From positions 384,001 through 448,000 of the forward strand of contig CAXMWX010000005.1 of NCBI GenBank assembly GCA_963422205.2: a DNA stretch of 64,000 nt, written 5' to 3'. Positions 15 through 28,416 of the stretch are shown piece by piece. The number at the start of each line of letters is the position of its first letter. The stretch's first letter is position 1. A program made the translations under genes and the position numbers. The notes beneath the pieces are model-generated. The model was not told where the DNA came from, did not search any database, and saw only the letters and a list, made by a program, of their open reading frames with translations. Source of the DNA: Gammaproteobacteria bacterium (lineage in GTDB: Bacteria; Pseudomonadota; Gammaproteobacteria; Eutrophobiales; Eutrophobiaceae).

Positions 15-353
15 GTGAGGCGGATAGTCGATCGCCTCATCGGTTACAGTTATTCCCGTCAGGGCATTGCCTGTGGTCGGGTATCGTCTGCCTTGCTGAG
101 TGTTACGGCCCGCCATGCACCGATTATTGGTCATGTTGTTCTGAGCTTGCCAGCGGCTGATGGCGGGGAGGTATTTGCTTGTCGGATGCCGGTTACGCGG
201 GAGACGCTGTCTCTCTGGCGATACCGGCAGCGGCTACTCTGGGACAGCCAACCAGCCAGGGTAATGAAGGTAGCAGGGAAACGTACATCGCCGCTGAATT
301 ATGCTGGTCTGATGCAGCATGTACTGGCAAGGCACCATGAGGTGAGGGCATGA
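15..353 (+). CDS. Hypothetical protein (start uncertain, may begin outside window)
   Basis: Stop overlaps next ATG (ATGA coupling at 350-353). Confidence 0.4.
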   Translation: MRRIVDRLIGYSYSRQGIACGRVSSALLSVTARHAPIIGHVVLSLPAADGGEVFACRMPVTRETLSLWRYRQRLLWDSQPARVMKVAGKRTSPLNYAGLMQHVLARHHEVRA

Positions 354-1285
354 GTGCATTAACAGCCCTAAATCAGGCCCTGCAATCGGTGTATGAGGCG
401 GGCGATACCACCTATTGCAGGAGCTCCAGCCGGGCTTTCTCATCAGCGGGTGTCGCCATACTGGGGCGGATTGCCGCACGCGCCGGTTTGCCTTTTAATC
501 CAGAGTGCATTCCCATACATGATCTGCAAGCGGCTGGCGCGCATGAGGCACAACGCCCGACTGAGGCAGCAATGGGCAAGGTGGTGGACTTGTTGCCCGT
601 GGATACGGCGCTGTTATCCGATGAGGAGTTTGTGCTGGCGGAGCTGGGTCGACAGGGGCTCTTGTGTGGTACGGAAATACAGGTTGATCTGCCCGATGTC
701 CGTCACCTGCCCGACTGGGCGAGGGGCTTGCCCTGGGAGCGAGTGACCGCTGCCAGTGCGTGTTCATATCCTGCCCGGCCGGAGCCGGGCGTGTACACCT
801 ATGAGACAGACGAGATAGCCTTTCGTCATCTGGTCAGCTTTGGGCTGGGCAAGCCCTCAACGCTGGTCGGCCACGCCAACCGTTTTGCGATGCGAAAGCT
901 CTATCACCCGCATACCGGCTTGACCCATAAGGGGCAGAGGTGGCTGGATTTGACCCCGGCCATTCTGCGAATGGTAGAGACCAGTCTGGCGATGGAGGCC
1001 ATCTTTGATGAGAGTGTGAGAGAAGACGATGAGCGCATCGCCATAGAGCGTGCCCTGGCCTGCCTGGGAGAGGAAAGCCAACGCTATATCACACAACGGC
1101 TTGAAGGGCAGGCGGTTTTCTCTTTGCTGAACGGTGTGCCAGAGAATAGCCGCCAGCAACAATCACCACCTGCCCCGGAAAACGAAAACAAGAACAGCGA
1201 AGGCAAGACTACAAAGCAGCAGACGGATAAAGCCAGGGCGGTTGATGCCGACAGGACGCCCGATAGTATGCCGATGGGTATGTAA
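350..1285 (+). CDS. Hypothetical protein with disordered C-terminal tail ending DSMPMGM
   Basis: 311-aa ORF coupled to neighbours; low-complexity Q/E/K/P tail. Confidence 0.65.
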   Translation: MSALTALNQALQSVYEAGDTTYCRSSSRAFSSAGVAILGRIAARAGLPFNPECIPIHDLQAAGAHEAQRPTEAAMGKVVDLLPVDTALLSDEEFVLAELGRQGLLCGTEIQVDLPDVRHLPDWARGLPWERVTAASACSYPARPEPGVYTYETDEIAFRHLVSFGLGKPSTLVGHANRFAMRKLYHPHTGLTHKGQRWLDLTPAILRMVETSLAMEAIFDESVREDDERIAIERALACLGEESQRYITQRLEGQAVFSLLNGVPENSRQQQSPPAPENENKNSEGKTTKQQTDKARAVDADRTPDSMPMGM

Positions 1286-1708
1286 GTGGGCGCTGAGACA
1301 GAACTTCCTGGATACGTCAGTGAGCCAGTTGACCCTCCGTTTAAGCTAATCAGTCAGGCGCTCATCAGGCAGGCAACTGCTGCGGGTGTGCGCTATATGA
1401 CTGTCAATGGCATTGATTGCAAACTGGCCCTGGATGAGGCATTCGCCGCCGATGGTCTGCTGCCCTTGCTGGTCACTCTGGTGCAGCATCGGCATGGACT
1501 TGCCTCATTGCCCCTGTATTTGTTGCCTGATAAGGCCAATGCCTTGACTGGCTGGCGGGTGGCGTTGGGAGAGCAGGTAACCGACGAGCAGATCAAATCG
1601 GCACTGGCCTTACTCGGCGAGGAGCTGACCCTACTGATTGATGCCTCGACATCCAAGGAGTTCATCAGCCTGGATAGCCATGAGTGGCGGGGCCTGCCCT
1701 TTGGATGA
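1286..1708 (+). CDS. icmS: IcmS-like type IVB adaptor/chaperone
   Basis: DEAFAADGLLP, ALTGWRV and LIDASTSKEFISLD align with recalled Legionella IcmS DEVFSETGLLP, ALLGIRV and LIQGGPSRDYTPLD; similar size. Confidence 0.55.
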   Translation: MGAETELPGYVSEPVDPPFKLISQALIRQATAAGVRYMTVNGIDCKLALDEAFAADGLLPLLVTLVQHRHGLASLPLYLLPDKANALTGWRVALGEQVTDEQIKSALALLGEELTLLIDASTSKEFISLDSHEWRGLPFG

Positions 1709-1735
1709 CAAAGGGCTGGGAGATTAGCTCAAGGC

Positions 1736-2242
1736 ATGAGGATCAACGATCTAAAACTGGCCTTGCAGCGCTGGTATTCCAGCGAGCGGATGGTCAAGGT
1801 CAGGGCAGTGGTGTGGCAGGCGGCCAGGGTGTTCAGGCTGTTGTTCTTACCGGATTTCAAGGCCCTGTGGCGTTTGAGCCGCAATGATTATCCCGGTGGC
1901 TTACGATCGGGTTTGATCACCAGGGAGGCAATCGCTTCATGGCAACGTGCCAGCACACCAGCCAGAAAGGTGCACGTGGCATTTATCAAGGTCAATCCGT
2001 TGGTGATGCTGGCCTGGTATCTTTGTGCGCTGGTCTTTGCTGGTTTAGCCCTCTGGCTGGGGTACAGTTTTTTTATTGTCTCTCACTGGAGTGAGCGGCT
2101 GAATTGTTTTATGGGGTTTTGTGCGGCGCTGACATTTTCTGTCACCGGTTTTTATAATACCTGGTGCGATACCACCAGGGTGGCGGCCTATAAGCGCTCT
2201 ATCAGGCGCTATATACAGAGCAGCCCGGGACATAAGGAATAA
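1736..2242 (+). CDS. icmV: IcmV-like inner-membrane protein
   Basis: WYSSERM...FRLLFLP, two C-terminal TM helices and GHKE end resemble recalled IcmV (WFDWERM...FKRLFVP...GEKE). Confidence 0.5.
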   Translation: MRINDLKLALQRWYSSERMVKVRAVVWQAARVFRLLFLPDFKALWRLSRNDYPGGLRSGLITREAIASWQRASTPARKVHVAFIKVNPLVMLAWYLCALVFAGLALWLGYSFFIVSHWSERLNCFMGFCAALTFSVTGFYNTWCDTTRVAAYKRSIRRYIQSSPGHKE

Positions 2243-2245
2243 GAT

Positions 2246-4095
2246 ATGCGTTTGTATATTGCCGAGAAGCCCTCATTAGGGATGACGATTGCCAAGGTGT
2301 TAGGCATCAAACCTGGGCGACATCAGGGGTATGTTGAGACCCGTGATGGGTATGTCACCTGGTGTGTCGGACATATTCTTGAGATGGCAAATCCTGAGCA
2401 TTACTGGCCGGACATGAAAGGTCAAAAATGGAGTCTGGAGCCACTGCCGATGGTGCCAGCGCAATGGGCCAAGCTGCCCGTTAAGGCGAAGCAAAAGCAA
2501 CTGGCCATCATCAGCAAACTGCTCAAGCGAAAAGATGTCACCGAGATTGTTCACGCCGGGGATGCTGGCCGGGAGGGACAGATGATTATTGATGAGGTGT
2601 TGGCCTATCACCACAACACCAAGCCGGTGGTTCGCTTCTGGACGAAGGGGCTGGATAAGCAAAACATCCGCAAGGCACTGAACAGTATGCCGGACAATGC
2701 CCGGTTTCAGTCATATTCGGATGAGGCCAGGGCAAGGGCCGAGGCCGATTGGTTGATCGGTATGAATATGTCACGGGTGGTGTCCATCAAACATGCCCGA
2801 TACGGTGAGGTGCTGTCAGTGGGACGGGTACAGACGCCAACGCTGGCGATCATTGTCGATCGGGAGCGGGCAATTCAGCAGTTTGTGCCGAAGACCTATT
2901 ATGCCATTGTGGGGACATTTGAACATCCCAATGGCTGCTTTGAGGCGGTTTGGGATGTCAACCGGTCGGCATACAGCGAGGGTATTGATAGCCAGGGGCA
3001 GTTGACTAATAAACGACAAGGGGAAAAGATAACACAGGCACTTAAAAACACTACGGGGACGATCAGCACCTTTGATGAGAAAACACAGAGCGTAGCACCG
3101 CCGCTACCGATGGTGTTATCCACCTTGCTGGCGAAGGTGAATAAGCGTTACAAGATTGACATTGATAAAATCCAGGCGGCGGCACAAACGCTGTATGAGG
3201 CGGGTGCCATCACGTATCCCCGCACCGATTGTGAGTATCTGCCCGAAGCCCAGCATGGCGAGGCCGCCAGTGTGATTGAGGTGGCTACCGGGGTGCTGAA
3301 TATCCAGGATAGCCGGGCAGCCACCCTGGACAGTACGCTGAAATCCCGTGCCTGGAATGACAAGAAGATCACCGAGGACCATCATGGTTTGATGCCGACT
3401 GTGCAGGCCCCGGCATTCAAGCTCGACTTGGAGCGCACTGTCTATGACTATGTGGCGAGATATTATCTGGCACAATTCTATCCAGAGGCCGAAGACTTCA
3501 AGCGCCGTTGCGAGGTGCGGCTGGCGGGAGAAACATTTGTGGCATCAGGCACAACAGAAGTTGCCCCCGGCTGGCGCAGGCTGTTTGGCAAACTCAAGGA
3601 TGTGGGCGAGCAGGCTACGGGCAACAACACGCTGCCAGCCATGCAGGTGGACGATCCCGTCAACTGCATAGCCTTATCGCTTGATGAGCGGCAAACCAAA
3701 CTGCCCACCCGCTTCATGCAAGGGACGCTGGTGGATAAGCAAGGGGGGCGATGGCCTCGGTGGCGAAGTTTGTGACCGACCCGGCATTGAAAAAGCTATT
3801 AAAGGACACCGCGGGCCTGGGTACGCCAGCGACCCGTACCGAGATCGTAAAAAAGCTCTTTGCCCGGAAGTTCATCACGTCCGGTACGGGTAAGCAGAAG
3901 CACTACATCTTCCCCACCGAGCTGGGGTGTCGGCTGATTGACAAGGTGTTGCCGGAACTCAAAGACCCCGGCTTGACGGCCTTGTTTGAGCAGGAGCTTG
4001 AGCGTATCAAGCAGGGCAGCAGCACCCGCCAGGCGTTCATAGACAAACAGGTGACTTTCCTTCAGCGCGTGATTGCCAAGGAAAAAGCCGCTTGA
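2246..4095 (+). pseudogene. topB: DNA topoisomerase III (ICE/plasmid type), frameshifted
   Basis: IAEKPS, TWCVGH, DAGREG, GRVQTPTL, ITYPRTD and GLGTPATR motifs; removing 11 nt (3737-3747) restores TLVDAMASVAKFV. Confidence 0.9.
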
Positions 4096-4158: not shown

Positions 4159-4356
4159 ATGAAATTGAACCGTAAAGCTGTCAGGAAAAGCGTATTGGCG
4201 AGGCATCAGGATGATAATTATGTCGATGCTTCAATAGAGGAACGTATGGCTATGGTTTGGCCTCTGACCAAAGAGGTCGCCGCTTTAAGTCCCCGGCACG
4301 ATGTGGAACGAAGATTACAAAGACATATTACACGCCTTGTCAGCAGAGCAAGTTGA
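4159..4356 (+). CDS. Small partner (putative antitoxin) of downstream nucleotidyltransferase
   Basis: 65 aa, SIEERMAMVWPLT motif, overlaps NTase start. Confidence 0.6.
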   Translation: MKLNRKAVRKSVLARHQDDNYVDASIEERMAMVWPLTKEVAALSPRHDVERRLQRHITRLVSRAS

Positions 4357-4813
4357 TTTCATTCTGATCGGCGCTTATGCCCTGGCCGCTCATGGGTTGC
4401 CCAGAGCGACGATAGATGTGGATATTTGGGTGCAGCCATCATCAGGCAATGCCAGAAAAGTCCACGCTGCGTTGCTTGCCTTTGGTGCGCCAATGCGTGA
4501 GATTTCAGTGGCGGATTTTGCAGAAGAAGGTACGGTTTTTCAGATTGGCGTAGCGCCCCGGAGGATCGATATTCTAACCGGAATCAGTGGTGTCAATTAC
4601 GAGGAGGCGATCGAGGAAGCGATTGTCACCAAAGTGGAAGGCATACAGATCAACATACTGTCAATGAAGCATCTGATAGCAAACAAAATGTCAACTGGCC
4701 GGCTTAAAGATTTGGATGATGTACAGAGGCTGCAAGAGCTGGTCAAGCGTTCTGATGCAAAAACCATAAGTGACATCACGCCTAACATTGATCTTAAGTT
4801 CGCATCAGGATGA
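4301..4813 (+). CDS. Nucleotidyltransferase (DUF6036/AbiEii-like)
   Basis: LIGAYALAAHGLPRATIDVDIWV; K...GRLKDLDD. Confidence 0.85.
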   Translation: MWNEDYKDILHALSAEQVDFILIGAYALAAHGLPRATIDVDIWVQPSSGNARKVHAALLAFGAPMREISVADFAEEGTVFQIGVAPRRIDILTGISGVNYEEAIEEAIVTKVEGIQINILSMKHLIANKMSTGRLKDLDDVQRLQELVKRSDAKTISDITPNIDLKFASG

Positions 4814-4838
4814 AGAGCCAGGCATCCGATAGACAAGG

Positions 4839-5084
4839 TTGGATGAGGCAATGATACGAGTAGTAGGCAGACGTAAATTACAGCCTATCAGCAGTAAGCC
4901 ATCAGGTGATAAATTGAGGGAAGGCATTTTGTTTGTTGAAGAGATGGGTAGATTATGTCCGGTTAAGCATATTCCTAAAGGTATCTATCGCTTTAACAGC
5001 CATGCTGAAATGAACGAGTATGACATTGATTGTACTGTCAATGCCATGAAAAAACTAAGGCGGAAGCGGCATGAGCATGTCTGA
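4839..5084 (+). CDS. Small partner (putative antitoxin) of second nucleotidyltransferase
   Basis: PKGIYRFNSHAEM motif; overlaps downstream NTase. Confidence 0.6.
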   Translation: MDEAMIRVVGRRKLQPISSKPSGDKLREGILFVEEMGRLCPVKHIPKGIYRFNSHAEMNEYDIDCTVNAMKKLRRKRHEHV

Positions 5085-5610
5085 CAATGATTATTGCAGG
5101 CCGCCTACTACTGCCGACTTACTTCAGCTCATACAGTCTCTAAATAAAGAAAACGTACCTTATCTTTTGATAGGAGGCCATGCCTTAAATGCACACGGTT
5201 ATTACAGAATGACCACGGATGTTGATATTCTGTTGCCTAAAACAGTTGACCCTGGCGCTATTATCCGCGCTTTGCTGGTGTTGCCAGACCAAATCGCCAG
5301 AGAGATTGACCCTGCCTGGTTTGCCGAAGGCAATACTATCCGTGTAGCGGATGCGTTTGTCGTTGATCTGATGTTCAATGCCTGTGGCGAGAGTTATGAG
5401 TCACTCAGCCAACATACGCATACGATTGAACTTGACGGGGTGCCCGTCAAGACTATTGACATGGAAGGTTTGCTAAAGACCAAACAAACTATCAGAGAGA
5501 AGGATAAAATAGATAGAATGTTGCTTGAGCGGGTGCTGGCAGAGGAGAAACTGGAGCAGGAGAAATCTGCCCAGGCAAAACCTGGCCATACATCCTCACC
5601 AGAGCCGTGA
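5071..5610 (+). CDS. Nucleotidyltransferase (DUF6036/AbiEii-like)
   Basis: LIGGHALNAHGYYRMTTDVDIL; KQTIREKDKID; tail ending HTSSPEP. Confidence 0.85.
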   Translation: MSMSDNDYCRPPTTADLLQLIQSLNKENVPYLLIGGHALNAHGYYRMTTDVDILLPKTVDPGAIIRALLVLPDQIAREIDPAWFAEGNTIRVADAFVVDLMFNACGESYESLSQHTHTIELDGVPVKTIDMEGLLKTKQTIREKDKIDRMLLERVLAEEKLEQEKSAQAKPGHTSSPEP

Positions 5611-5654: not shown

Positions 5655-6437
5655 ATGCCCCTGTTTGAGATACTTGGCTTTTCATGGGAGCGCTCCGCCG
5701 TCCATGCTGGCGTATCGGCCTCAGTTGAGCGGGTTGTTTTTCGTTACAAGCAATCGCTTGCTCAGTTTGTGTTTGATGCCAGTGCCCTTGAAGGCAACCC
5801 GTTTACTTATCCTGAAGTTAAGACGCTGATGGATGGCGTGACGGTGGGAGGACACAAAATCTCTGATCAACAACAGGTGTTAAACCTCGTGGCGGCGGCT
5901 GAGGCATTATTCAGGCTGGTGAAGGCCGACACCTTTTCCCTGGACAAGACAACCTTTGATCGTTTGCATGGGCTGGTAGCCCGTGAGAAGGCGCTGGAAT
6001 GGGGGCATTTTCGGGGCGAAGGTGAAGAGAGCAGCCTGACACCCTCGGTCGCTCTCGGTGAGAAGGGGGGGTATACGCCAGCGCTGACTGAGCCAGGTGG
6101 CACCAACTTACAGCGGATTTTTTCTGTGGGTATTGATGCCCTGAACTTGGCAGTCACCGAGCCGCAAGAGCGGGCAATGGCGCTCTTTCTGTTCGGAGCA
6201 TTGCAGCAATTCTATTTTGATGGCAACAAGCGCACCGCTCGCTTTATGATGAATGGCATTCTCATGTCACATGGTATGGATGCGATCTCTGTGCCTGCTG
6301 TGCGAGACAGGGAGTTCAATGAGAAGATGGTGCGATTTTATCTGACAAAGGATGCCACCGAGATGATGCACTTCCTGATTGCGTGCCAGTCAAAAGATAC
6401 ACCCAAGCCGGAGTCACTATCCGGGCTATCGCCGTGA
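5655..6437 (+). CDS. Fic family protein (non-canonical motif)
   Basis: SALEGNPFT and QFYFDGNKRTAR; tail ending PESLSGLSP. Confidence 0.85.
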   Translation: MPLFEILGFSWERSAVHAGVSASVERVVFRYKQSLAQFVFDASALEGNPFTYPEVKTLMDGVTVGGHKISDQQQVLNLVAAAEALFRLVKADTFSLDKTTFDRLHGLVAREKALEWGHFRGEGEESSLTPSVALGEKGGYTPALTEPGGTNLQRIFSVGIDALNLAVTEPQERAMALFLFGALQQFYFDGNKRTARFMMNGILMSHGMDAISVPAVRDREFNEKMVRFYLTKDATEMMHFLIACQSKDTPKPESLSGLSP

Positions 6438-6440
6438 AGC

Positions 6441-6593
6441 GAGGCAGTGATGGTAAGGTATCAGCATCAACATACTGTCAATCAAGCATCTGATAGCAAG
6501 CAAGCTGTCAACTGGCCGCCCAGGGGCTTGGCGGATGTGTTGAGGTTGCGTGAGTTAAACCCACCTGCTTATACAACTTCATAAAGTGCAAGA
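6441..6593 (+). pseudogene. Orphan degenerate 3' fragment paralogous to NTase 4301..4813
   Basis: atcaacatactgtcaatcaagcatctgatagcaa...tcaactggccg matches ~4649-4740. Confidence 0.8.
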
Positions 6594-6629: not shown

Positions 6630-6971
6630 TTGTTTCTCATGAGCCAGCCACAGGAAGTCACTGAATGCCTAAAGCATCTCGGCACCTACATTGAGATTGC
6701 TCGCAGACGCCAGCAGCTGACATTGAAACAGATGGCTGGCAGACTGGATGTGAGTATTCCAACCTATGTGGCGATAGAGCAAGGCTCGCCTGCCGTCAAG
6801 CTGGCCAATTATCTGACTGCCCTGTGGATCATGGGATTATTGGAACAAGCGATGAGGATCGGTCATCCTGATACGGATAAACAGGGCAAGGCGCTGGAGA
6901 TACGGCGTTTGCTTCGGGGTGGTCAGCGGCCCAGAGCGGCATCTGATGTAACCGGGGCGCATGATTTTTAA
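6630..6971 (+). CDS. XRE-family HTH antitoxin (HipB-like)
   Basis: ARRRQQLTLKQMAGRLDVSIPTYVAIEQG HTH, directly upstream of hipA. Confidence 0.85.
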   Translation: MFLMSQPQEVTECLKHLGTYIEIARRRQQLTLKQMAGRLDVSIPTYVAIEQGSPAVKLANYLTALWIMGLLEQAMRIGHPDTDKQGKALEIRRLLRGGQRPRAASDVTGAHDF

Positions 6972-6973
6972 CG

Positions 6974-8305
6974 ATGCAGCCAGCACTGTCAGAATTATAT
7001 GTCTACATGACCTTGCCGGGTACCACTGTGCCGGTGATCTGTGGTCGCTTACAGGCGATGCCATCCTATGATGGTTCAGGTGGCTATTACCAGTATGTCT
7101 ATGGCAAAAGCTATCTCGCCAGAGATCAGGCGATACCTGTAGAGCCTTTTACGCTACCGCTTTGGCTGGAGACATTCAGCACCGGGGGGAAGCATATATT
7201 CGGTGTGTTCAGTGATGCGATGCCGGATTTCTGGGGGCGGGTGGTTATTAGTCGGCGGTTGCAACGCGCGGAGATAAGCGAGTTGGACTACTTGTATTAT
7301 GCGGGTGATGACCGGGTGGGGGCGTTGTCCTTCTCACCGGCCTGTCAACCGGAGTTAAGCCCGCTTGCCTCATCGGCGGCAATGAAACGGCATAACTTGG
7401 CTGAGTTGGTGGATGTTGCCTGGCGGATTGAGCAGAAATTGCCGATTGAACCAGCATGGGATGAGTTGGTAAAGACGGGCAGTGGTATGGGTGGGGCGAG
7501 GCCAAAGTCGGTGGTACAGCGGGATGATGGGCTGTGGTTGGCGAAGTTTGCCCGTACCGATGATATGTACGATAAGCAACGGGCTGAATTCGCTGTGATG
7601 TCAATGGCCCGCGACTTGTCACTCAATGTGCCGGACATTGACCTGCGTGAGGCGGGCAGCGCTTCGGTATTTCTGATCAAGCGCTTTGATCGTGAGCAGA
7701 CGGCAACCGGGGCATACAAAAAGCAGCATTTTTTAAGCGCCTGTACCTTGTTTGCTGCCCATCCGTTGGGTGGCCATACGCAGGACTCCTATCCTCGATT
7801 AGCTGACTTATTGCGGCGGTTCAGTGCGGATGCGGTGGCTGACAGGCAGCTGTTATTCAAGCGGATGCTGTTTAATGTGCTGGTGAGCAACACGGACGAC
7901 CATCATCTTAATCACGGCTTCATATTGGGTAAGGGAGGCTGGCGCCTCTCGCCGTTATATGATGTAGTGCCCCTGCCCACCCGGCAGGATAAAAAGTCCC
8001 ACGGGTTAGCCCTGGGCGAGCAGGGTACCGCCTCGTCCATTGACAATGCTTTAAGTCAGGCCGGGCATTTTGGGGTGAGCAAAAGTCAAGCGCTGTCGTA
8101 CATTGAGGAGCAGGTAGCGGTGATCAGTCACTGGGAGAACTATTGCATTGAGGCGGACATGTCTGTCCTTGATCGCAAGTTATTGAGTCAGTGCTTCCTG
8201 CCAGAGCATATTGGTCTGGATAGGTATTTTCCGAAGGTGTATCCGGCCCAGTTGGCTAAAGGAGAATACATGGGTATGCAACAAGGTTTATCGTCAACTC
8301 CGTAG
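6974..8305 (+). CDS. hipA: HipA family kinase toxin
   Basis: DAMPDFWG, GSGMGGARPK, NTDDHHLNHGF, LSPLYD. Confidence 0.92.
   Translation: MQPALSELYVYMTLPGTTVPVICGRLQAMPSYDGSGGYYQYVYGKSYLARDQAIPVEPFTLPLWLETFSTGGKHIFGVFSDAMPDFWGRVVISRRLQRAEISELDYLYYAGDDRVGALSFSPACQPELSPLASSAAMKRHNLAELVDVAWRIEQKLPIEPAWDELVKTGSGMGGARPKSVVQRDDGLWLAKFARTDDMYDKQRAEFAVMSMARDLSLNVPDIDLREAGSASVFLIKRFDREQTATGAYKKQHFLSACTLFAAHPLGGHTQDSYPRLADLLRRFSADAVADRQLLFKRMLFNVLVSNTDDHHLNHGFILGKGGWRLSPLYDVVPLPTRQDKKSHGLALGEQGTASSIDNALSQAGHFGVSKSQALSYIEEQVAVISHWENYCIEADMSVLDRKLLSQCFLPEHIGLDRYFPKVYPAQLAKGEYMGMQQGLSSTP
8216..8247 (+). repeat. 32-bp direct repeat, copy 1 (inside hipA tail)
   Basis: ctggataggtattttccgaaggtgtatccggc; 31/32 identical to 9822-9853. 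Confidence 0.9.
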
Positions 8306-8412
8306 CGATGGCGCAAGCAGGCGCCCAACGTACATTGTTGACGCCGTACGATATTGAGTGATTAACTGCCAATCTCACAGCGAAACCTACCACAGGCATA
8401 AGGCAAATATAT

Positions 8413-9729
8413 TTGACTATGAGTAAGACACTACACGATCCTGACAGGCTGAATGTATGGCAGGGGCAGCGCCTTGTCGGTTCTATTTGGCGAAACGAAC
8501 TGGGTCGTATTGGGTTTTGTTATGCTAACGAGTGGCTGGCGGCCGGTGGTTTTGCCATTTCCCAAAGTCTGCCTTTGCAGGTTGACGAATTTCCCCCTGA
8601 CCACGGTCTTGCCCATCGCTACTTTGCCAATCTTTTGCCGGAAGGCGGCGCGCGTGACCGAATTGTTCGTGATTTTAAGATTGCCAATTCTGACTTTTCC
8701 TTACTCAGAGCTATCGGCGGTGAATGTGCCGGAGCGTTGTCAACTTTGCCTATAGAGCAACGGCCGACTGCTGAACACCGGTATGACAAACTATCAGAAA
8801 ATGAGATGGTTGAGTTGGTTTTAACTCGTGGTCGGGTTTACAAGAGGAGCGCAAACGATACGCCCCGGCTTTCCCTGGCGGGCGCTCAAAACAAGTGTCC
8901 TGTACTGGTTGAAAATGATGGCTGTTGGCTGCCCATGCAGGGGGCGCCATCCAGTCATATCCTCAAATTTGAATTACCGGACTACCGCAATATACCAGCT
9001 TATGAGACGTTTACCACCATGCTGGCAGAGGCTATTGGTCTACCTGTGGTATCTATCCGGTTACGATCAGTCAAGGGCAATCGCTATGCTTTGATTGCGC
9101 GCTACGACAGATACAGGGATGAGAACCAGCAAATTGTCAGGTTGCATCAAGAGGATTTCTGTCAGGCGCTGGGTAAGGGTTATGAGCACAAATACCAGGC
9201 GGACGGCGGCCCTGCATTTGCTGACTGTTATCGGCTACTCAAGGATGTATCAAGTGTACCGGATGATGACCTTGGCTGCCTGCTGGACTGGCAGATATTT
9301 AATGCACTGGCCGGCAATGCTGATGCCCATGTCAAAAATCTGTCGCTTTTGTATCATGCCAACGGCAATATCCGTCTGGCGCCTTGCTACGATCTCATTT
9401 CTACCTGTGCTATTGAGCATATTGACCATCATTTGGCATTGTTTGTCGGTGATCAGAATAATCCCTATGTGCTCTCCCGAAAAGACTGGATGCTATTGGC
9501 AGAACAATGTGAGTTACGCCCTCAATTTGTCCATGATCGGGTACTTGAGATGACGAGGAGCCTGGTACAGGCACTACAACCGACACGGAATAGATTTGAA
9601 GGTCTGTATGGTCACTGTGATGCCTTGCAGAGGATAGAGCACGTAGTCAAGAAGCAGTGTCGGCGCATGTTCAGAGAATATAATATCCATGAACAGCCAA
9701 GGATAAGTGTGGGGCCAGAGTTGTCGTGA
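8413..9729 (+). CDS. hipA: HipA family kinase toxin (no adjacent hipB)
   Basis: FANLLPEG, LSLAGAQNK, HQEDFCQALG, GNADAHVKNLS, LAPCYD. Confidence 0.92.
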   Translation: MTMSKTLHDPDRLNVWQGQRLVGSIWRNELGRIGFCYANEWLAAGGFAISQSLPLQVDEFPPDHGLAHRYFANLLPEGGARDRIVRDFKIANSDFSLLRAIGGECAGALSTLPIEQRPTAEHRYDKLSENEMVELVLTRGRVYKRSANDTPRLSLAGAQNKCPVLVENDGCWLPMQGAPSSHILKFELPDYRNIPAYETFTTMLAEAIGLPVVSIRLRSVKGNRYALIARYDRYRDENQQIVRLHQEDFCQALGKGYEHKYQADGGPAFADCYRLLKDVSSVPDDDLGCLLDWQIFNALAGNADAHVKNLSLLYHANGNIRLAPCYDLISTCAIEHIDHHLALFVGDQNNPYVLSRKDWMLLAEQCELRPQFVHDRVLEMTRSLVQALQPTRNRFEGLYGHCDALQRIEHVVKKQCRRMFREYNIHEQPRISVGPELS

Positions 9730-10010: not shown

Positions 10011-11198
10011 CTACATTCCAGGGCTGGGATACTTGCGAGCCGTTTCGGTTGAGGATATCTCCATATTATGTGCAAGCGTATTAATATCCTTTATCAATTG
10101 ATAGCTAGGGTGTCGTCCACCTTGGTTTTGAATGAAAATACCACGAGATAACAGGTCTGTTATGTCGCTGATAGCCTCGGTCTCCGCACATTTCGCTATC
10201 TTGGCATATTTACCCTTATTCATAAATCCCTGGAAATTCTCTTCCAACATACGATTCAGGATATGGCGCTGACGTTCATTGACAGGATTGTGCTTTAGAC
10301 TATCCCAAAGACGAGCTTTGAAAAACACGTTTTCCAACGTGTGTTCAGATCGTAGTATTGCCCGTTCCAGGCATGACAGAAACCAGGATAACCAAGGGGT
10401 AATGTCGATATGACTGTTTTTTCCAACACGTTCCAGTTGATGGTAATACGCCTTGCGCTCTGATTTAAACTGCTTGGACAGGCTGTAGAAACGTTGTGAG
10501 GCGCCATCAGCCCGACACAATGCCATGTCACATATCGCCCGCCCTAGACGTCCGTTACCATCCTCAAAAGGATGTATGATCTCAAACCAAACATGAGCTA
10601 TGGCTGCCTTGAGGAGGGGGTCTATATCGTTCGGCTGGTTAAACCAGTCTAAAAAAACTGTCATTTCCACATCCAATCGTTCCGCATCTGGGGCATCAAA
10701 ATGTACTTTCTCATGTCCAATGGCGCCGGAGACCACCTGCACCCCTGCTGTTCGCCAGCCACCTGTCATAATGGGATACATACCACTCATGCCGGTCGGA
10801 AACACTGCCCTATGCCATTTGAACAGGCGTGCCTTTGTTAATGGCATTAAATACTGTTGAGTGGCATCCAGTACCATATCTGCAAAACCTTCAATATCTT
10901 GATGATCACTGGATGCGATCTCCCGCACCTCCGGGATATTGATGCCTAAGCGCCTGGCAATGGATGTACGCACCGTTTTAGGCGCTAGGGTAATACCTTC
11001 AATAGCTGAGGATTGGACTACGTCAGTGGTGAGCATGTTGAGACTGACTTCTTGTGTTAACTCAAAGCCCAGTCCTTCCATCCTGCCAAGCAGTTGCCCC
11101 TGGCGATGGCGTATATCAGCCAGTTTAGGCGTAAGCACTTCGGCATCCCAGGTAAAGCTAGGCCAGTTTGGATGTTGGTGTATCCGCATAGTAAACAC
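10011..11198 (-). CDS. Fic family protein with DUF4172-like N-terminus
   Basis: IHQHPNWPSFTWD, SSAIEG, HPFEDGNGRLGR; tail ending KYPSPGM. Confidence 0.92.
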   Translation of the reverse strand: MFTMRIHQHPNWPSFTWDAEVLTPKLADIRHRQGQLLGRMEGLGFELTQEVSLNMLTTDVVQSSAIEGITLAPKTVRTSIARRLGINIPEVREIASSDHQDIEGFADMVLDATQQYLMPLTKARLFKWHRAVFPTGMSGMYPIMTGGWRTAGVQVVSGAIGHEKVHFDAPDAERLDVEMTVFLDWFNQPNDIDPLLKAAIAHVWFEIIHPFEDGNGRLGRAICDMALCRADGASQRFYSLSKQFKSERKAYYHQLERVGKNSHIDITPWLSWFLSCLERAILRSEHTLENVFFKARLWDSLKHNPVNERQRHILNRMLEENFQGFMNKGKYAKIAKCAETEAISDITDLLSRGIFIQNQGGRHPSYQLIKDINTLAHNMEISSTETARKYPSPGM

Positions 11199-11280: not shown

Positions 11281-12474
11281 CTACCGAAATCTGAAGCCAC
11301 TGAAGCCATAAGATCCTACCCTCGTATATCTACACCTGTGCCCTGGGTGGCCATTGATGATCCCCCCTGTTGCGACGGCGCTTTGACCTACTGGACAGGA
11401 TTGAGGTTGTGGGGTTGATTTTTCGCCAGCGCTATAACAGGCGACCACGGCTATGTCGAAACTGTCACGGTATACCCGCCAGCGGTAACGACCCTCGCTG
11501 TCTTCTGTTCCCGGCACAATATTTACCCATATACCAGCATCATGTTTGTTGCCATCCTTGCTTGCTGAACACAGATGATGGTGACCGGGGAGCATCGTCC
11601 CCGAAGGAAATGTGTATATGTTTCCTGCTTGATAGTGACTCACATACCCGCCGCTACTCCCGCTTGCTCCCTTCTTCCAGATACTGCCCTGGCAGGTAAG
11701 CAGCTTGCCCTGGTTGTCAAGCGCTATACTGCCGCTACTGCAAGCGGTGCCTTCTGTCTTGGTAGCCACACGCAAGTTATCGGTACTGGTCGTATGTAAT
11801 TTACTGGTAGATGCCGGGTCAACGTAATAGGCGGTGTTATCGCGATCATAGACGATATTTGCGCTTACCTGATTCATCGTGCTTGTGCCACCTGGGTCAA
11901 CCGAGAATCCCGGATGATTGGCATCGGTAAATGTATTTGCACTGAGGGTTGTCGCATTGACGGTACTGGCATTGTCAATGTTATTGCCACCCACATTTAA
12001 GTCGGCCAGCATGGAGTTCGCTCCATCCACACGCAGAAAAGCAGCCGGGTTATTGCCCGAGGTGGCGACTGTGGCGATGATAGTCACGATAAGTGGCTGG
12101 GCAGGCTTATGACCGAGCTCGGTATAGTGATAGCCAATCTTGCCTGCCAACTGTCGGGCGAGTACACCAATATCCCCCGTCCAGGTCTCCAGGGTCAGTT
12201 CCTGCCGCAAGTCTTCTGGCACTTCGCCGCCGGGATATTCTTTCAAGTTCGCTATGCTGCCTGGGTCACGGGACTGCTCAATTCTGCCCAGTGCTGCCCA
12301 AAGAGTTTGAATCTCAAGTGCGGTATCGGCTAAGGCACGGGTGATGCTGGGATCGGGCATATTGTCGCTGTCTTGGGGTATAGCGGGCGTCTTTTTCAGG
12401 CAGGCGGTCAGGATAAGGCCAGGCAGCGCACAAAAGATCAGCCTCAGAGAATACCGGGATGGGCTCATGGTCAC
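11281..12474 (-). CDS. Chimeric ORF: DotD/TraH-like lipoprotein N-terminus fused to PilV-type adhesin C-terminus
   Basis: Lipobox LTAC and WTGDIGVLARQLAGKIGYHYTELG (DotD-like), followed by FLRVDG...MLADLNVGGNNIDNA and GTACSSGSIALDNQGKLLTCQGSIWKK (PilV-like). Confidence 0.7.
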   Translation of the reverse strand: MTMSPSRYSLRLIFCALPGLILTACLKKTPAIPQDSDNMPDPSITRALADTALEIQTLWAALGRIEQSRDPGSIANLKEYPGGEVPEDLRQELTLETWTGDIGVLARQLAGKIGYHYTELGHKPAQPLIVTIIATVATSGNNPAAFLRVDGANSMLADLNVGGNNIDNASTVNATTLSANTFTDANHPGFSVDPGGTSTMNQVSANIVYDRDNTAYYVDPASTSKLHTTSTDNLRVATKTEGTACSSGSIALDNQGKLLTCQGSIWKKGASGSSGGYVSHYQAGNIYTFPSGTMLPGHHHLCSASKDGNKHDAGIWVNIVPGTEDSEGRYRWRVYRDSFDIAVVACYSAGEKSTPQPQSCPVGQSAVATGGIINGHPGHRCRYTRVGSYGFSGFRFR

Positions 12475-14926: not shown

Positions 14927-14950
14927 AGTTTTTCTCCGAAAGTATTTTCA

Positions 14951-15352: not shown

Positions 15353-15970
15353 TCACATCCCCGGCCCGGTTTCCGGCTCAAGGGTTGGCTTGGGAGATGG
15401 GTTATCCGGCCACAGCGCACTGAGCGGGAAAGTAATCGCATCAAATGGTGGGACTGAGACGGCGGCATCACCCGCCAGCGAGGCAATCAGCGACCACCGG
15501 CTATCGGTGAGCTGGAAGGCTTCCAGGGTACGGGCATCAGGATCGACAAACCACAGATAGTCTACCCCCTCACGGGCATAGATGTCGCGCTTGTCGGTCA
15601 AATCAAGCTGGCGGGTTGAGGGCGATAACACCTCACACACCCAGTCCGGGGCAAGTTCAAAGAAGGCGGCATTTGGGAGGCTGGGCATAGTCTCGCGTCG
15701 CCAACCGGCCAAGTCCGGCACCAGAATGTCCTCGCCCAGGTGCAGCTCCGGCTCATCAATAATCCACCAGCCTCCCGGGCCGCCTCGACCGCGGTCAAAG
15801 GGATTAACCAACTCACCCCCGATGATTGAACTCGCTCGCGCATGAGGTATAGCGGGGCGGGGCTGCATCCTAAGCACGCCATAGATGACTTCTGCCACCT
15901 TGTGAGGCGGCGCATCCAGCACATCCTGGTAGGTGGCCTTAGCCTGGGTTTTGCGTGCGGAGGTAATCAT
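15353..15970 (-). CDS. Uma2 family (PD-(D/E)XK) endonuclease
   Basis: ATYQDVLDAPPH, LVPDLAGW, APDWVCEVLSPST; tail ending PETGPGM. Confidence 0.92.
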   Translation of the reverse strand: MITSARKTQAKATYQDVLDAPPHKVAEVIYGVLRMQPRPAIPHARASSIIGGELVNPFDRGRGGPGGWWIIDEPELHLGEDILVPDLAGWRRETMPSLPNAAFFELAPDWVCEVLSPSTRQLDLTDKRDIYAREGVDYLWFVDPDARTLEAFQLTDSRWSLIASLAGDAAVSVPPFDAITFPLSALWPDNPSPKPTLEPETGPGM

Positions 15971-16785: not shown

Positions 16786-16787
16786 GA

Positions 16788-24327: not shown

Positions 24328-24576
24328 ATGAATAACGAACGCTATCTTGTTTCGCTTGGGCAACGCCTTCGTCAGGCCCGAAGGCTGCGCTTTCCTCAAG
24401 ATGACTTAAAGGCATTTTCTGTCCGCATCGGGGTAAGCCGCGCTACCCTGCAGAAAATGGAACAAGGTGACACGCATGTTGCCTTTGGTAGTTACCTGTC
24501 TGCCGCTGACATTCTGGATATGACGGACGCATTCAATCAGCTGTTCGAAATTGAGAAAAGCCTATTTGATGATTAA
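24328..24576 (+). CDS. XRE HTH antitoxin (HipB-like)
   Basis: LGQRLRQAR...RIGVSRATLQKMEQG. Confidence 0.85.
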   Translation: MNNERYLVSLGQRLRQARRLRFPQDDLKAFSVRIGVSRATLQKMEQGDTHVAFGSYLSAADILDMTDAFNQLFEIEKSLFDD

Positions 24577-25870
24577 ACAACACTATAACGTCTATCTCAA
24601 CACAACAATGAGTGGCATTATCCAAGCTGGCGAGTCCGTCATCCAGGAAATTAATGGTATTACCACAACTGTAGGGTTTCGGTACACGCCGGAGTATTTA
24701 CATAGTGAGGCGGCTATACCCCTGTGCCCAAGGCAATTACCACTCAAAAATAGCGACTTCATACTACAGTGCGCCAAAGGGTACAGGCCCGGCTTTATTG
24801 ATGATTATCTGCCGGATGACTGGGGCAGAAAAATCCTGTCAAGATTAGCCTATCAGCAATCACAGAAACAACTCTCAACCAGTAGCTGTATTGATATGCT
24901 GTCATACCTTAACAGCAGCAGAACAGGGGCGCTTTTGCTCATCCCTCAAGATAACCCGAAGGCACATCAGCCTGTATATGGCTTAGGTATGCCGCTTGAC
25001 CATCTTGCTAGAATTGAAGCAGCGTCCCAACAAGTCAACCAAGATGTGCTGAGTGACATCAGCTATGATGAGATGTCTATGATCTATCTGGCAAACTCCG
25101 GTACTGGTGTTGGGGGTGCTCGCCCAAAAGCCCTGGTCTATGATAATAACGGTGCTTATCTGGCAAAATTTAATACCACTCGTGATCCGTACAATGCCGC
25201 AAGGGTTGAATCTGCCTGCCTGTCTATGGCAGTGGCTGCTGGCATAGATGTGCCCGAATCAACAATTCTGACGAGAGTTAATCAACGAGATGCTGTGCTC
25301 ATTAAGAGGTTTGACATCAATAACGATTCAGCCAAAAGCCGTAACCATCTAATCACCTTCAATGCACTGCTAAAAGATCCTGTCACACAGATGGATGAGC
25401 CATTGCCGTTTACCTACAACCAGGTTTTTTCGGTACTACAGAAACATTCGGTTGCCATTGAACATGACGCCAGGCAATTATTAGCCCTTATGCTATTTAA
25501 TCGCTGTATCAATAACACGGACGACCATCCAAGAAATTTCAGTCTACTCCATTCAGAGGACGGTTATCGACTTGCGCCAGCTTATGATTTAATGCCGTCA
25601 TTGGTGATGGGTAATTATCATGCAGCAGGGTTTGATTATTCGCCTAATCCACCCACGTTACTTGAAATCCAAAAGCATAAAAAACCTTTTGGTTTGCCCA
25701 AAGGCGATGTAACAGAAATTGCGGAGCGTGTCAGTACGGCCATAGGGCAATGGACTCACTTTGCCAAGGAAGCGGGACTAACAAATGATGAGGAAAAATT
25801 ACTTGCTTCTGTTTTTCATAGTGATTTAAATACAGCGAGAAATACAGTCAGTCAAACGCCAAGTATGTGA
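24569..25870 (+). CDS. hipA: HipA family kinase toxin
   Basis: DYLPDDWG, GTGVGGARPK, NTDDHPRNFS, LAPAYD; tail ending SQTPSM. Confidence 0.92.
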   Translation: MIKQHYNVYLNTTMSGIIQAGESVIQEINGITTTVGFRYTPEYLHSEAAIPLCPRQLPLKNSDFILQCAKGYRPGFIDDYLPDDWGRKILSRLAYQQSQKQLSTSSCIDMLSYLNSSRTGALLLIPQDNPKAHQPVYGLGMPLDHLARIEAASQQVNQDVLSDISYDEMSMIYLANSGTGVGGARPKALVYDNNGAYLAKFNTTRDPYNAARVESACLSMAVAAGIDVPESTILTRVNQRDAVLIKRFDINNDSAKSRNHLITFNALLKDPVTQMDEPLPFTYNQVFSVLQKHSVAIEHDARQLLALMLFNRCINNTDDHPRNFSLLHSEDGYRLAPAYDLMPSLVMGNYHAAGFDYSPNPPTLLEIQKHKKPFGLPKGDVTEIAERVSTAIGQWTHFAKEAGLTNDEEKLLASVFHSDLNTARNTVSQTPSM

Positions 25871-26345: not shown

Positions 26346-26405
26346 GGGAGGTGCGAGTAGTTGCAAAACAAGCAGCACATCAGCTACTATAGGGGGTGTT
26401 GATAC

Positions 26406-26927
26406 ATGATTATTGAAAAATTTTCTTCTTTCCGGGACATTCTGACGTGGATATTGGCCTTGGGTATCATAGGCATTGCAATTGCGTTTATCTATGCCGT
26501 TTGGGCCAAACCACCGAAATTTTGATTTTTCAACCTAAAATTTGGTACAACGACAACAGCAACTAATAGAGATATGGTCGCTTTTTTCAAGTCCCAAAAG
26601 TGTCCGCAAGGATGGAGTTCCTATGATCTTGTAGAAGGTCGCTATATTGTGGGGACAGCATCGACGGGCAAAGTTGAGGAAATGATCGGCAACAAGCTAA
26701 GTCCAAATGAAAACAGACCCACTGGATTGCATACTCACGAAACCACCGTTTATAAAATTCAGCACAATGGAATCTCTGAAGATGGGCTAGATACGAAGTT
26801 TCGTGGTTCTTCAAACGTAAAAATCAATGTAGCTTTTGCCAGTAAAACTAATAAACAGCCTGGTTTAAAAAGGTACGAACGCGCCCTATATCACGTTGAA
26901 AGCATGTATATGCACGTCAGCGGCTAA
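26406..26927 (+). pseudogene. Membrane protein with tail-collar-like domain, frameshifted near 26520
   Basis: N-terminal TM, then MVAFFKSQKCPQGWSSYDLVEGRYIVG. Confidence 0.5.
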
Positions 26928-27003
26928 TCGTACTGCCGCCCCAAACGCTCATAACTGATCATGAGCAACTCGCAGACAAGGTAAAATGAAAAGCATTATT
27001 ACA

Positions 27004-27801
27004 TTACAGGCACATACTTGGGGTTATGTCTGGTTTTTTAGATGATGTCGCCGTGCATGGTGTGATACCCAGTGCGTGCCAGTAAGGTTTGAAACCATTT
27101 TCAATCGCCTGACATACCAGCTTGATAAAAGGGTCATAGTTTTTTTCTGTATGCACTTTATCCAGGGCATGGTAGTAGAAAAAACGTTGATCTACCGCAA
27201 TAATGGCAGCGGGATAACCGGCCTTCATCAGTTCAGCATTCATCAATAAACGTGATGTTCTGCCATTCCCATCAATAAAGGGATGAATCCCGATGAAATC
27301 GGCATGGACACGTGCTGCCCTCTCAACAGGATGCAGTGTCAGCGCTTCTTCCGTATACCACCGAATAAAATTCTGCATCTCTCCTGCTACCACTACTGGC
27401 TCTGGAGGAATATGCCTGGCACCACCAATCCTGACCGACACCTTACGGTATACGCCAGCATTATCATTATCGATTTGCTTTAAAACCAGTTGATGAATAT
27501 TCTTAATATGCCATTCAGACAAGGGCTGGCTTTCCTGCACCAGACTTTCAATATAGTTAATAGCATCACTATGATTGATGACTTCAAGATGCTCTCTCAT
27601 CGTCTTACCACCCACAGTGATGCCCTCAAGCACCACTTTGGTTTCCAGAAGCGTCAGTGAATTGCCCTCAATGGCATTTGAATGATAAGTCCAATCCAGC
27701 ACAAGGTTCTCTCTCAGCCTGGCGAGAACCGCATCAGGTAACGGACGATGCTCGTCCAGTTGCCCTTTAAGCCGCTCGAGTATTCTATAGTCTTGCATCA
27801 T
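27004..27801 (-). CDS. Fic family protein (class II)
   Basis: TYHSNAIEGN inhibitory motif and HPFIDGNGRTSR; tail ending DITPSMCL. Confidence 0.92.
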   Translation of the reverse strand: MMQDYRILERLKGQLDEHRPLPDAVLARLRENLVLDWTYHSNAIEGNSLTLLETKVVLEGITVGGKTMREHLEVINHSDAINYIESLVQESQPLSEWHIKNIHQLVLKQIDNDNAGVYRKVSVRIGGARHIPPEPVVVAGEMQNFIRWYTEEALTLHPVERAARVHADFIGIHPFIDGNGRTSRLLMNAELMKAGYPAAIIAVDQRFFYYHALDKVHTEKNYDPFIKLVCQAIENGFKPYWHALGITPCTATSSKKPDITPSMCL

Positions 27802-27825
27802 GCCGCCTTACTATGATGTTACAGA

Positions 27826-28416
27826 CTAATCCATGCACTTTCTTATGGTTGTAAACCCAGACTCGCCGATAAGATGAGGCTTGCTATCGTGATTGATCTG
27901 GCACATCTCCTCCAGGGCATACAGCGTTTTCTGCGGGAAACGATCCAGCGGATAGTAGTGGGATATGATATCAACGGCCTGTTTATAGTCGTTGATCTGT
28001 AAGTGTGCAAGCAGATACCGAATGTCACCGTAATCGTGGAACGAATTTTCCAGCCGCATTGACAGACATTTCATTGCCAGCAGGTACTGGGGCTGGGCAA
28101 CCATCACCTTCAGATGGCTAAGTGCCAGGAAAGGGGCAAACGTACCTTTATCACTCAGATAGCCCTTGACACCATCATTGAGCCAGTTCTTATCAATACG
28201 CTTATCTGAGGCAACCTTTGTGGCCGCTTCCCGGATCGTTGTCGCCGGACTAAAAAACGCATCTATATCCTGGGTCGTTGGCCTCACCTCATACACCAGG
28301 CACATGACAGCACCACCAACCAGATAAATATCTCCTTGCACATCGTCTTTTTGCAGTTCCCGGTTGAGCTCATGGAATAAGACTTCTACCTGTTCTTTAC
28401 CAAGACCTGTTGCCAT
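27826..28416 (-). CDS. Nucleotidyltransferase (DUF6036-like)
   Basis: LVGGAVMCL...RPTTQDIDA, WLNDGVKG, YLLAMK. Confidence 0.88.
   Translation of the reverse strand: MATGLGKEQVEVLFHELNRELQKDDVQGDIYLVGGAVMCLVYEVRPTTQDIDAFFSPATTIREAATKVASDKRIDKNWLNDGVKGYLSDKGTFAPFLALSHLKVMVAQPQYLLAMKCLSMRLENSFHDYGDIRYLLAHLQINDYKQAVDIISHYYPLDRFPQKTLYALEEMCQINHDSKPHLIGESGFTTIRKCMD

Follow-up and report, generated by a model that had tools for sequence, protein, structure and literature searches.

The 64,000-nucleotide window analysed here (C7:384001-448000; window position 1 is C7:384001) comes from a gammaproteobacterial genome, G000 (GCA_963422205.2; 2.99 Mb in 14 contigs, 97.97% complete). From position 1 to about 34,200 it is the cargo part of a genomic island whose right end lies at integrase fragments and a tRNA-Thr gene (Table 1); from about 36.5 kb on it is ordinary chromosome with type IV pilus genes, ispH, ileS, ribF, murJ, proB and obg. 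The island is the wreck of an integrative conjugative element of the IncI/Dot-Icm type (mating-pair formation class MPF_I, type IVB secretion system or T4BSS), inserted at the tRNA-Thr gene. In G000 it occupies two stretches, C7:264.0-284.7 kb and C7:374.7-418.0 kb, which together hold 80 open reading frames (ORFs). Proteins of unrelated families encoded on it, among them toxins of toxin-antitoxin (TA) modules, end in a short common C-terminal tag, which is the subject of this analysis.

Table 1. Features of the island part of the window. Positions are window positions; ORFs are named in the text by their first position.
Feature	Position	Strand	Remarks
ORF C7:383580-384353 (257 aa)	3..353 (3' part)	+	N-terminal Toprim half of a split plasmid-type Toprim protein
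ORF 350 (311 aa)	350..1285	+	C-terminal half of the same Toprim protein; aligned to residues 259-501 of 521
Topoisomerase III-like gene in two ORFs	2246..4095 (2246-3775, 3751-4095)	+	Pfam Toprim and Topoisom_bac split; homologous to plasmid TopB; no tag
Two pairs of small ORF and nucleotidyltransferase (NTase)	4159..5610 (4159/4301, DUF2204-type; 4839/5071)	+	Ends KFASG and TSSPEP, not the tag
Doc/Fic-like protein	5655..6437	+	Weak Pfam match; end LSGLSP, not the tag
Helix-turn-helix (HTH) ORF (HipB-like) 6630-6971, HipA 6974-8305, HipA 8413-9729	6630..9729	+	Canonical length; no tag
DUF4172-Fic protein	10011..11198	-	Appended tail, nt 10014-10100, ending SPGM
DotD N-terminus::PilV-like C-terminus fusion ORF	11281..12474	-	Deletion product; Pfam DotD at 46-135
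Rci-like tyrosine recombinase	12820..13746	+	30% identical to the integrase beside DotD on NZ_CP096915.1; weak Pfam Phage_integrase match
HigB toxin 14951-15229, HTH antitoxin 14642-14926	14642..15229	-	No tail
Uma2 (PADLOC PDC-S03)	15353..15970	-	16-residue tail, nt 15356-15403, ending GPGM; in duplicated 3.7-kb block
HTH ORF (HipB-like) 24328-24576, HipA 24551-25870	24328..25870	+	Tail of about 15 residues, nt 25823-25867, ending TPSM
Fic protein	27004..27801	-	20-residue tail, nt 27007-27066, ending TPSM+CL; G031 orthologue ends TAPGM
DUF6036-type NTase 27826-28416, 124-aa partner 28416-28790	27826..28790	-	No tag; conserved in G031
IetA 31907-32794, IetS in three ORFs (30928-31761, 29884-30831, 29152-29859)	29152..32794	-	Broken defence system
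Integrase in at least two fragments, tRNA-Thr 34143-34218	33010..34218	-	Right end of island

ORFs were our own greedy longest-ORF calls of at least 90 aa, made without a gene caller, which gave 2657 non-overlapping ORFs in G000. A sequence-only reading of the region had quoted ten C-terminal endings as one shared tail, and all ten occur in the translated ORFs exactly as written. Five of them carry a common motif, [ST]-x(0-1)-[PM]-[GS]-Met, which stands at the free carboxy terminus of Fic 10011 (SPGM), Uma2 15353 (GPGM), HipA 24551 (TPSM) and ORF 350 (PMGM), and in Fic 27004 (TPSM) is followed by a run-on of two residues, CL. The remaining five endings (TSSPEP, LSGLSP, SVGPELS, LSSTP and KFASG) share no motif beyond some Ser and Pro, and only half of the proposed set survives. 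Across the genome, P[GS]M forms the C-terminus of 6 of the 2657 ORFs, all on contig C7 between 277 and 410 kb and all within the 80-ORF set of the island. Chance would give 0.25 such ends if judged by the position-specific composition of the ends of the remaining ORFs, and 0.49 if judged by how often the tripeptide occurs internally. The six are three copies of Uma2, Fic 10011, HipA 24551 and a 154-aa NTase at C7:374735-375199, just upstream of the window. As Uma2 is counted three times, they represent four independent families. The wider pattern [PM][GSA]M ends seven ORFs, all seven on the islands, and none of the 2577 non-island ORFs; ORF 350 and Fic 27004 are near matches to P[GS]M. The motif and the island limits were both set post hoc, after inspection, and p-values and enrichment figures are therefore indicative only.

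At the motif the codons vary (GGG, GGT, GGA and GGC for Gly; CCG, CCT and CCA for Pro), all three stop codons are used, and the DNA 3´ of the stops of the tagged genes is mutually unrelated. The likeness is therefore conserved at the level of protein. The same observations rule out a DNA repeat or cassette boundary that supplies the last codons, and a repeat search of window positions 1-40000 found no repeat at gene ends. In Fic 27004 the end reads ATG TGC CTG TAA where HipA 24551 has ATG TGA.

The tails that bear the motif are 13-29 residues long (about 60 in ORF 350) and are, in every family testable, lineage-specific additions to unrelated families. In Fic 10011 the family anchor is followed by 29 residues; the 119 nearest homologues in the database, none above 65% identity, have a median of 8 there (range 4-34), and not one of them ends in Met. 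Past its PYWxALG anchor Fic 27004 has 20 residues, and the counts for two close homologues are 18 and 14; in 108 other anchor-bearing homologues the median is 3 and the longest stretch 17 residues; nine further homologues without the anchor pattern are also short as judged by eye, and among all of these the motif ending recurs only in the G031 orthologue. Alignments of HipA 24551 to 150 cluster representatives (46% identity or less) end about 15-17 residues before its C-terminus, and none of the representatives has the motif, one ending in GPAM. For the 154-aa NTase, three of three close homologues (77-82% identity) keep TM[GR]PGM or TMGLDM, while three of three distant database homologues (44-50% identity) are tail-less and end at the last helix of the fold. 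The same holds for every one of the 79 complete homologues at 80 metagenome loci, all at 50% identity or less and not including the close tail-bearing homologues P0123 and P0124. Uma2 provides an internal comparison: of ten copies in G000, seven are chromosomal (81-88% identical) and stop directly after LWPD, whereas all three on the island go on with NPSPKP..EPETGPGM. In ORF 350 the tail is a low-complexity stretch (nt 1097-1282).

AlphaFold models give the 154-aa NTase a predicted local distance difference test score (pLDDT) mostly above 90 for residues 1-140 and of about 50 for residues 141-154; in Fic 27004 the last helix ends at residue 243 and residues 250-264 have pLDDT below 50. The tails thus resemble Dot/Icm substrates in having an unstructured segment within the last 20-30 residues. 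The claim that the tails are extensions holds on these grounds for the tagged proteins but fails for HipA 8413 (438 aa) and HipA 6974 (443 aa), which exceed the solved Escherichia coli HipA (440 aa) by only about 3-5 residues and are therefore of normal length and without a tail.

A second, independent occurrence of the tag is found in G031, a genome of the same family as G000 and of another genus (single contig of 2.63 Mb, of which 400 kb was read). Its island lies at 320-372 kb between a sigma-54 regulator gene and hemB, which in G000 are direct neighbours on contig C11, with an empty site; the two islands were therefore inserted independently. Five of the 374 ORFs in the 400 kb end in [PM]GM and all five lie inside the 52-kb island: the orthologue of Fic 27004, two Uma2 copies, the 154-aa NTase and a 368-aa protein (ASMGM) that matches parts of giant N6-methylase/DEAD-helicase proteins of conjugative plasmids. 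A HipA-like kinase carries the tag near its end (SPGM followed by SI). The kinase and the 368-aa protein represent two tagged families that are without a tag in G000. Between orthologues, the bodies of the tails turn over while the ending is kept (TPSMCL vs TAPGM; PMGM in ORF 350 vs MQMGV). A home-written Nei-Gojobori count for 17 island gene pairs from G000 and G031 gave ratios of nonsynonymous to synonymous divergence (dN/dS) of 0.09-0.26 at dS 0.56-1.8, and the island genes have therefore been under purifying selection for most of their divergence. The replication in G031 is a stronger control than the enrichment statistics of G000. It also bears on the objection that the shared ending reflects chance and common descent, with neutral run-on tails that look alike. 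The motif is just 3-4 residues long and was defined post hoc, the Uma2 copies are paralogous, and some tails run on past the Met (CL, SI). Yet at least four unrelated families are tagged where 0.25-0.5 would be expected, the ends are kept across two independently inserted islands while the rest of the tails diverges, new tagged families appear in G031, and the codons at the motif vary synonymously. We consider a chance origin very improbable and reject it on the enrichment in G000 together with the replication in G031. The tag is real, appended, conserved at the protein level and confined to this element lineage.

The proteins that carry it in G000 are two different Fic proteins, a HipA kinase, the nuclease-like Uma2, the C-terminal Toprim half and the MenT-like NTase encoded just before the window, to which G031 adds a second HipA-like kinase and the end of the methylase/helicase-like protein. 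Most folds proposed from sequence for the cargo were confirmed by Pfam, namely three Fic proteins (E 9e-16 for 10011, with DUF4172, and 1e-23 for 27004; weak for 5655), three HipA proteins, Uma2 and one DUF2204 NTase, whereas NTase 5071 and ORF 350 have no Pfam match. The Fic/Doc toxin signature is HxFx(D/E)GNGRxxR; HPFEDGNGRLGR and HPFIDGNGRTSR are visible in the two tagged Fic proteins, and Doc-like GNKR variants occur in 5655 and in 14138, the latter a fragment. Couple_hipA and HipA_C domains were found in 6974, 8413 and 24551, with HTH ORFs at 6630 and 24328 as expected of HipBA modules; the ORF list has no HTH ORF adjacent to HipA 8413. NTase 4301 is AbiEii-like by its Pfam match, and PADLOC detected nothing for the NTase pairs. 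The G031 orthologue of NTase 5071 ends in GPGF. The best Protein Data Bank matches of the model of the 154-aa NTase are MenT1 toxin chains (E 1.8e-3, TM 0.45-0.52), which is a weak match.

The idea that the carriers are all toxins does not hold. The ORF upstream of ORF 350, which ORF 350 overlaps at its start by ATGA, aligns in blastp to residues 1-238 of the 521-aa Toprim protein of the MPF_I plasmid NZ_CP096915.1 (37% identity, E 1e-31), and ORF 350 itself aligns to the C-terminal half of the same protein, so that its candidacy as a toxin was rejected. Weak topoisomerase matches in the ESM Atlas (score 0.90, 139-143 shared features) had given the same lead, which the plasmid alignment bears out. 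Together with the methylase/helicase-like protein of G031, this shows that the tag is not restricted to toxins. The antitoxin-like partner ORFs, on the other hand, lack the motif as had been stated, and so does HigBA, of which HigB is itself a toxin without a tail.

Uma2 genes, the PADLOC candidate system PDC-S03, are abundant in these genomes, with ten matches in G000 (3 Mb), eight in G006, a further genome of which 260 kb was read, and six in G031. In G000 they lie at C3:240130, C5:183458/184096, C9:43145/43774 and C11:232579/233604 in addition to the three island copies, often as tandem pairs. Uma2 15353 is part of a 3.7-kb block (window 15353-19015, C7:399353-403015) that is repeated at C7:276998-280660 and hence present in both island stretches. 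The block comprises Uma2, a 118-aa ORF, a 92-aa AbiEii-like fragment, a 297-aa ORF annotated by PADLOC as ‘cll’, and ORFs of 208 and 190 aa; behind it lies a fragment of an rve-type transposase. The block was probably involved when the element was split or rearranged.

The element itself descends from an MPF_I system. G000 has both a DotA/TraY and a DotL/IcmO-type coupling protein, the hallmarks of such an element, although DotL contains one TAG codon. An intact DotA/TraY gene (TIGR04346, 372.6 bits) lies about 3 kb before the start of the window, at C7:378684-380990; the call rests on this NCBIfam model, and the blank with Pfam DotA (PF11388) is uninformative, its control being silent as well. 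DotL/IcmO lies on the other island stretch at C7:272533-274791, is 37-43% identical to plasmid IcmO-like proteins and has a C-terminal extension of about 190 residues. The same stretch holds a DotI/IcmL remnant with an internal stop, a partial DotH/IcmK and a 127-residue fragment of IcmB, and within 350-28416 the only T4BSS trace is a fragment of DotD. Of the core MPF_I set (DotB, DotC, DotD, DotG, DotH, DotI, IcmB and a relaxase), G000 thus has only fragments of DotD, DotH, DotI and IcmB. With proteins of NZ_CP096915.1 as queries, no DotB, DotC, DotG, TraK, pil genes or (MobQ) relaxase were found in G000, and a complete type IVB machine in the same cell is lacking. Further decay is seen in the split TopB, the fragmented integrase and the division of IetS over three ORFs.

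In G031 other parts were kept. The fusion ORF 11281-12474 matches both ends of a G031 block that runs from DotD to a 247-aa ORF, and between these ends G031 retains pieces of DotD, DotC/TraI, DotB/TraJ, TraK, TcpQ and PilN, beside an Rci-like recombinase, with a DotD-to-PilN gene order that is that of the intact MPF_I plasmid NZ_CP096915.1. The same plasmid queries found no DotI, DotH, DotG or IcmB in the 400 kb of G031, DotI and TrbI being absent genome-wide as well. As the remnants in G000 and G031 are complementary, their ancestor had the full system. Between the fusion ORF and the Rci-like recombinase of G000, at window 12633-12720, are two tandem 44-nt repeats (77% alike) that may be remnants of shufflon recombination sites.

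The Dot/Icm-like element of the sequence-only reading can therefore be upheld as to descent (DotA, DotL and the remnants of DotI, DotH, IcmB and DotD) but not as a working machine, and the present-day delivery that was claimed for it is excluded in this genome, where the machine is missing or broken. That a working type IVB machine on the element currently injects the toxins into rival bacteria or a host is hardly credible. Such an arsenal could call on the same tag evidence as a relic signal, and a bacterial-killing T4BSS exists in Pseudomonas putida (PMC9519443), but it would have to operate with the machine of G000 in the state described above, a fragmented integrase and no relaxase that could be found.

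We tentatively favour a reading in which the tag is a relic T4BSS translocation signal; on the sequence evidence this is the best reading, though unproven, and we stop short of calling it probable. In an ancestral IncI/Dot-Icm-type element, a subset of the element’s proteins would have gained a short disordered C-terminal tag that served as a portable recognition signal for an element-encoded reader, most likely the DotL coupling-protein complex of the type IVB system. Tagged proteins, establishment enzymes and toxins alike, would have passed into the recipient during mating while their untagged partners stayed in the donor. With the machine of G000 dead, the tag would be a relic there, and any activity left to the toxins would be that of ordinary TA or defence cargo. 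DotL is the best candidate for the reader because substrates of type IV secretion systems (T4SS) are usually recognised via C-terminal unstructured signals, because the C-terminal extension of Legionella DotL recognises substrates (PMC7251119) and the DotL found here has a likewise long extension, and because conjugation systems hand DNA-processing proteins of plasmids to recipient cells (PMC11288057), which fits a tagged Toprim protein. Delivery also has precedents for toxins in VbhT (PMC5675462) and in the P. putida kib system (PMC9519443).

Several observations weigh against this reading. DotL of G000 has one in-frame TAG where G031 has CAG, and DotL of G031 (C1:322661-324904) is interrupted by a TAG of its own at another Gln codon. 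The two proteins are about 93% identical over the first 600 residues, above the housekeeping genes (68-84%), and each copy has a single CAG-to-TAG change, at codons 206 and 544; the combination points either to recent independent knock-outs or to tolerated amber codons. No match to TrbI/VirB10/DotG or to the VirB4 family was found in G000 or G031, with positive controls. HigB and five of the ten proteins originally listed are without the tag, and the motif is unlike described Dot/Icm signals save for its hydrophobic last residue and the E/P-rich tails of Uma2. No tag was found near the DotA remnants of two further genomes (G010, 0 of 175 ORFs in 200 kb; G029, 0 of 183 ORFs), nor in the 50 coding sequences of the 50-kb stretch scanned of the intact, distant plasmid NZ_CP096915.1, and the tag was rejected as a general feature of T4BSS elements on these results. 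No intact relative of the element was found, and hence the tag was never observed beside a working machine: a genome search with a piece of DotL matched only G031, DotA matched in 4 of 126 genomes of the order, two of them distant or fragmentary, and the relatives of DotA in the plasmid collection are only 25-27% identical and those of DotL 40-43%. Finally, G006 has four tail-bearing Uma2 proteins (GSGM, EPGM, EPKM and ESKM) and no match to DotA or DotL; this is, in part, the refuting observation named in the sequence-only reading, that homologues from genomes without a T4BSS have such extensions. One of the four may be a last remnant of an island, since it adjoins tpiA, beside a gene that also flanks the island of G000. 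That Fic 27004 runs on past its Met (CL), as does the HipA-like kinase of G031 (SI), would, speculatively, fit relaxed constraint after loss of the machine.

The persistence of the tag in islands without a T4BSS, and in G006 without DotA or DotL, is also what one would expect if it were a control signal unrelated to secretion, such as a C-terminal degron or a docking site for a cytoplasmic protease or adaptor that keeps dangerous cargo at a low level or activates it on demand. A free disordered C-terminus is a feature read by such proteases, most carriers are toxin-like (Fic, HipA, the NTase with its weak match to MenT1, Uma2/PDC-S03) and the partner ORFs are not tagged. The tagged Toprim half and methylase/helicase-like protein, neither of them a toxin, do not fit this alternative, and because of them delivery fits better than toxin control; HigB and three HipA and NTase toxins of the same island are untagged; and the absence of [PM][GSA]M ends from all non-island ORFs would be odd for a signal read by a host protease. 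We know of no degron that the tag matches, which likewise counts against this explanation, and we hold it to be unlikely. Less likely still is that the tag docks the cargo to another partner encoded on the element rather than to the T4BSS; the thin-pilus apparatus could be that partner, or one of the conserved unknown ORFs near DotA and the Toprim gene could encode a chaperone or neutraliser common to the cargo. The tag is element-specific, and several ORFs of unassigned function are conserved between the islands of G000 and G031 at 53-70% identity, but no candidate reader was found, none of the island ORFs scanned has a PDZ, a TPR or another domain of the sort that binds C-termini, and the proposal is a placeholder rather than a mechanism.

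If the tag is a translocation signal, it differs from those described so far. The signal of Bartonella VbhT and the Bep proteins is a BID domain of about 100 residues with a charged tail, read by a VirB/VirD4 type IVA system. The XVIPCD of the Xanthomonadales is a folded domain of about 120 residues that is read by VirD4 of a type IVA system. To our knowledge, type IV secretion signals are notoriously diffuse and no short consensus exists for type IVB systems. In the plasmid ColIb-P9, tra protein transfer reportedly occurs, with the Sog primase as an example. The only Pfam domains are DUF4172 and Fic in 10011 and Fic in 27004, the additions amount to 29 and 20 residues, and a BID domain with charged tail is absent from both. 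VbhT is nonetheless a close parallel in outline, being a TA-module toxin of the FicT kind that became a T4SS substrate (PMC5675462): a TA-type Fic toxin on a conjugative element gains a C-terminal addition and the antitoxin does not. Here, in contrast, 13-29 disordered residues with a terminal motif of 3-4 residues are found on at least six families of a type IVB-derived element.

The C-terminal signals of Legionella and Coxiella Dot/Icm substrates, as far as the available account goes, involve a hydrophobic residue near the end, a glutamate block (EExxE) read by DotM, and an FxxxLxxxK signal read by LvgA on the C-terminal extension of DotL (PMC7251119). The likeness lies in the C-terminal, unstructured nature of the tails, a DotL-type coupling protein with a long extension, the hydrophobic last residue and the Glu/Pro-rich tails of Uma2. 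Inspection of the tails by eye found the terminal Met as the hydrophobic residue and neither EExxE nor FxxxLxxxK (signal types from PMC7251119), and in contrast to those signals the motif is fixed at the very last residues and far more discrete. The ‘conjutome’ of the F plasmid shows that conjugation substrates carry C-terminal or internal signals and that DNA-processing and establishment proteins reach the recipient, consistent with a tagged Toprim protein; the parts available of that work describe no shared short motif and report the delivery of antitoxins, not of TA toxins (PMC11288057). The kib T4BSS of P. putida, which kills bacteria, resembles the present case in being of type IVB, in lying on a genomic island, and in that a toxic effector with a cytosolic immunity partner is delivered by it into bacteria, but it has one effector-immunity pair, an intact machine and, in the available sections, no known signal on the effector and no shared tag (PMC9519443). 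In the X-T4SS of Xanthomonadales the XVIPCD marks unrelated toxins for a bacteria-killing T4SS (PMC10989847), a common C-terminal module as found here, although no module of that size is present on the tagged proteins. A limited full-text literature search found no description of a PGM-type C-terminal signal.

The general idea of a common C-terminal module for T4SS is hence known from VbhT and XVIPCD; what is new is that the module is only a few residues long and that at least six families carry it in an element derived from a type IVB system. It is possible, although we regard it as doubtful, that the IncI/Dot-Icm-type element lineage uses a discrete free C-terminal tag of a few residues (...[ST]-x-P-[GS]-Met-COOH) as an export signal. 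If so, any cargo gene could become a mating-transferred protein by gaining about 15 codons, a route that would have been taken by TA toxins of several folds, a MenT-like NTase, the Uma2 nuclease and the element’s own Toprim and methylase/helicase proteins. With it, type IVB systems would gain their first minimal signal defined by sequence, and TA toxins would have been converted wholesale into injected proteins. An export signal of this kind would offer a testable handle on substrate choice by DotL-type proteins and a simple prediction of substrates in related elements, and would add to Bartonella VbhT a second and much broader case in which TA toxins were recruited for transfer. Should the tag instead prove to be a degron or docking site, several toxin families would still be under the joint control of one linear motif, itself new and specific to the element. 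With the machine already broken in both genomes that display the tag best, the locus supplies a hypothesis and peptides rather than proof.

Some further features of the two island stretches were noted. IetA is an AAA ATPase, and the pieces of the subtilase IetS (277, 315 and 235 aa) correspond to positions 1-274, 307-623 and 635-849 of an 855-position profile. At window 21946-22689, on the minus strand, a 247-aa truncated MmeI-type restriction-modification gene retains only the target-recognition and C-terminal domains, and adjoins a pentapeptide-repeat protein gene (20795-21592, minus strand). A 64-nt piece of the 3´ part of NTase 4301 (window 4638-4701) recurs with 86% identity at 6455-6518, just after Fic 5655, and is the scar of a duplicated or deleted NTase cassette. 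On the other island stretch, upstream of the DotI remnant at C7:266-270 kb, there are phage- or plasmid-like ORFs, of which 269093-269800 resembles a C5 cytosine methyltransferase by eye. Between the tagged NTase and a tagged copy of Uma2, C7:376210-377352 (minus strand) encodes a class-3 lipase without a tag; its Pfam match is Lipase_3 (E 8e-30), and it faintly resembles the XopAP effector family.

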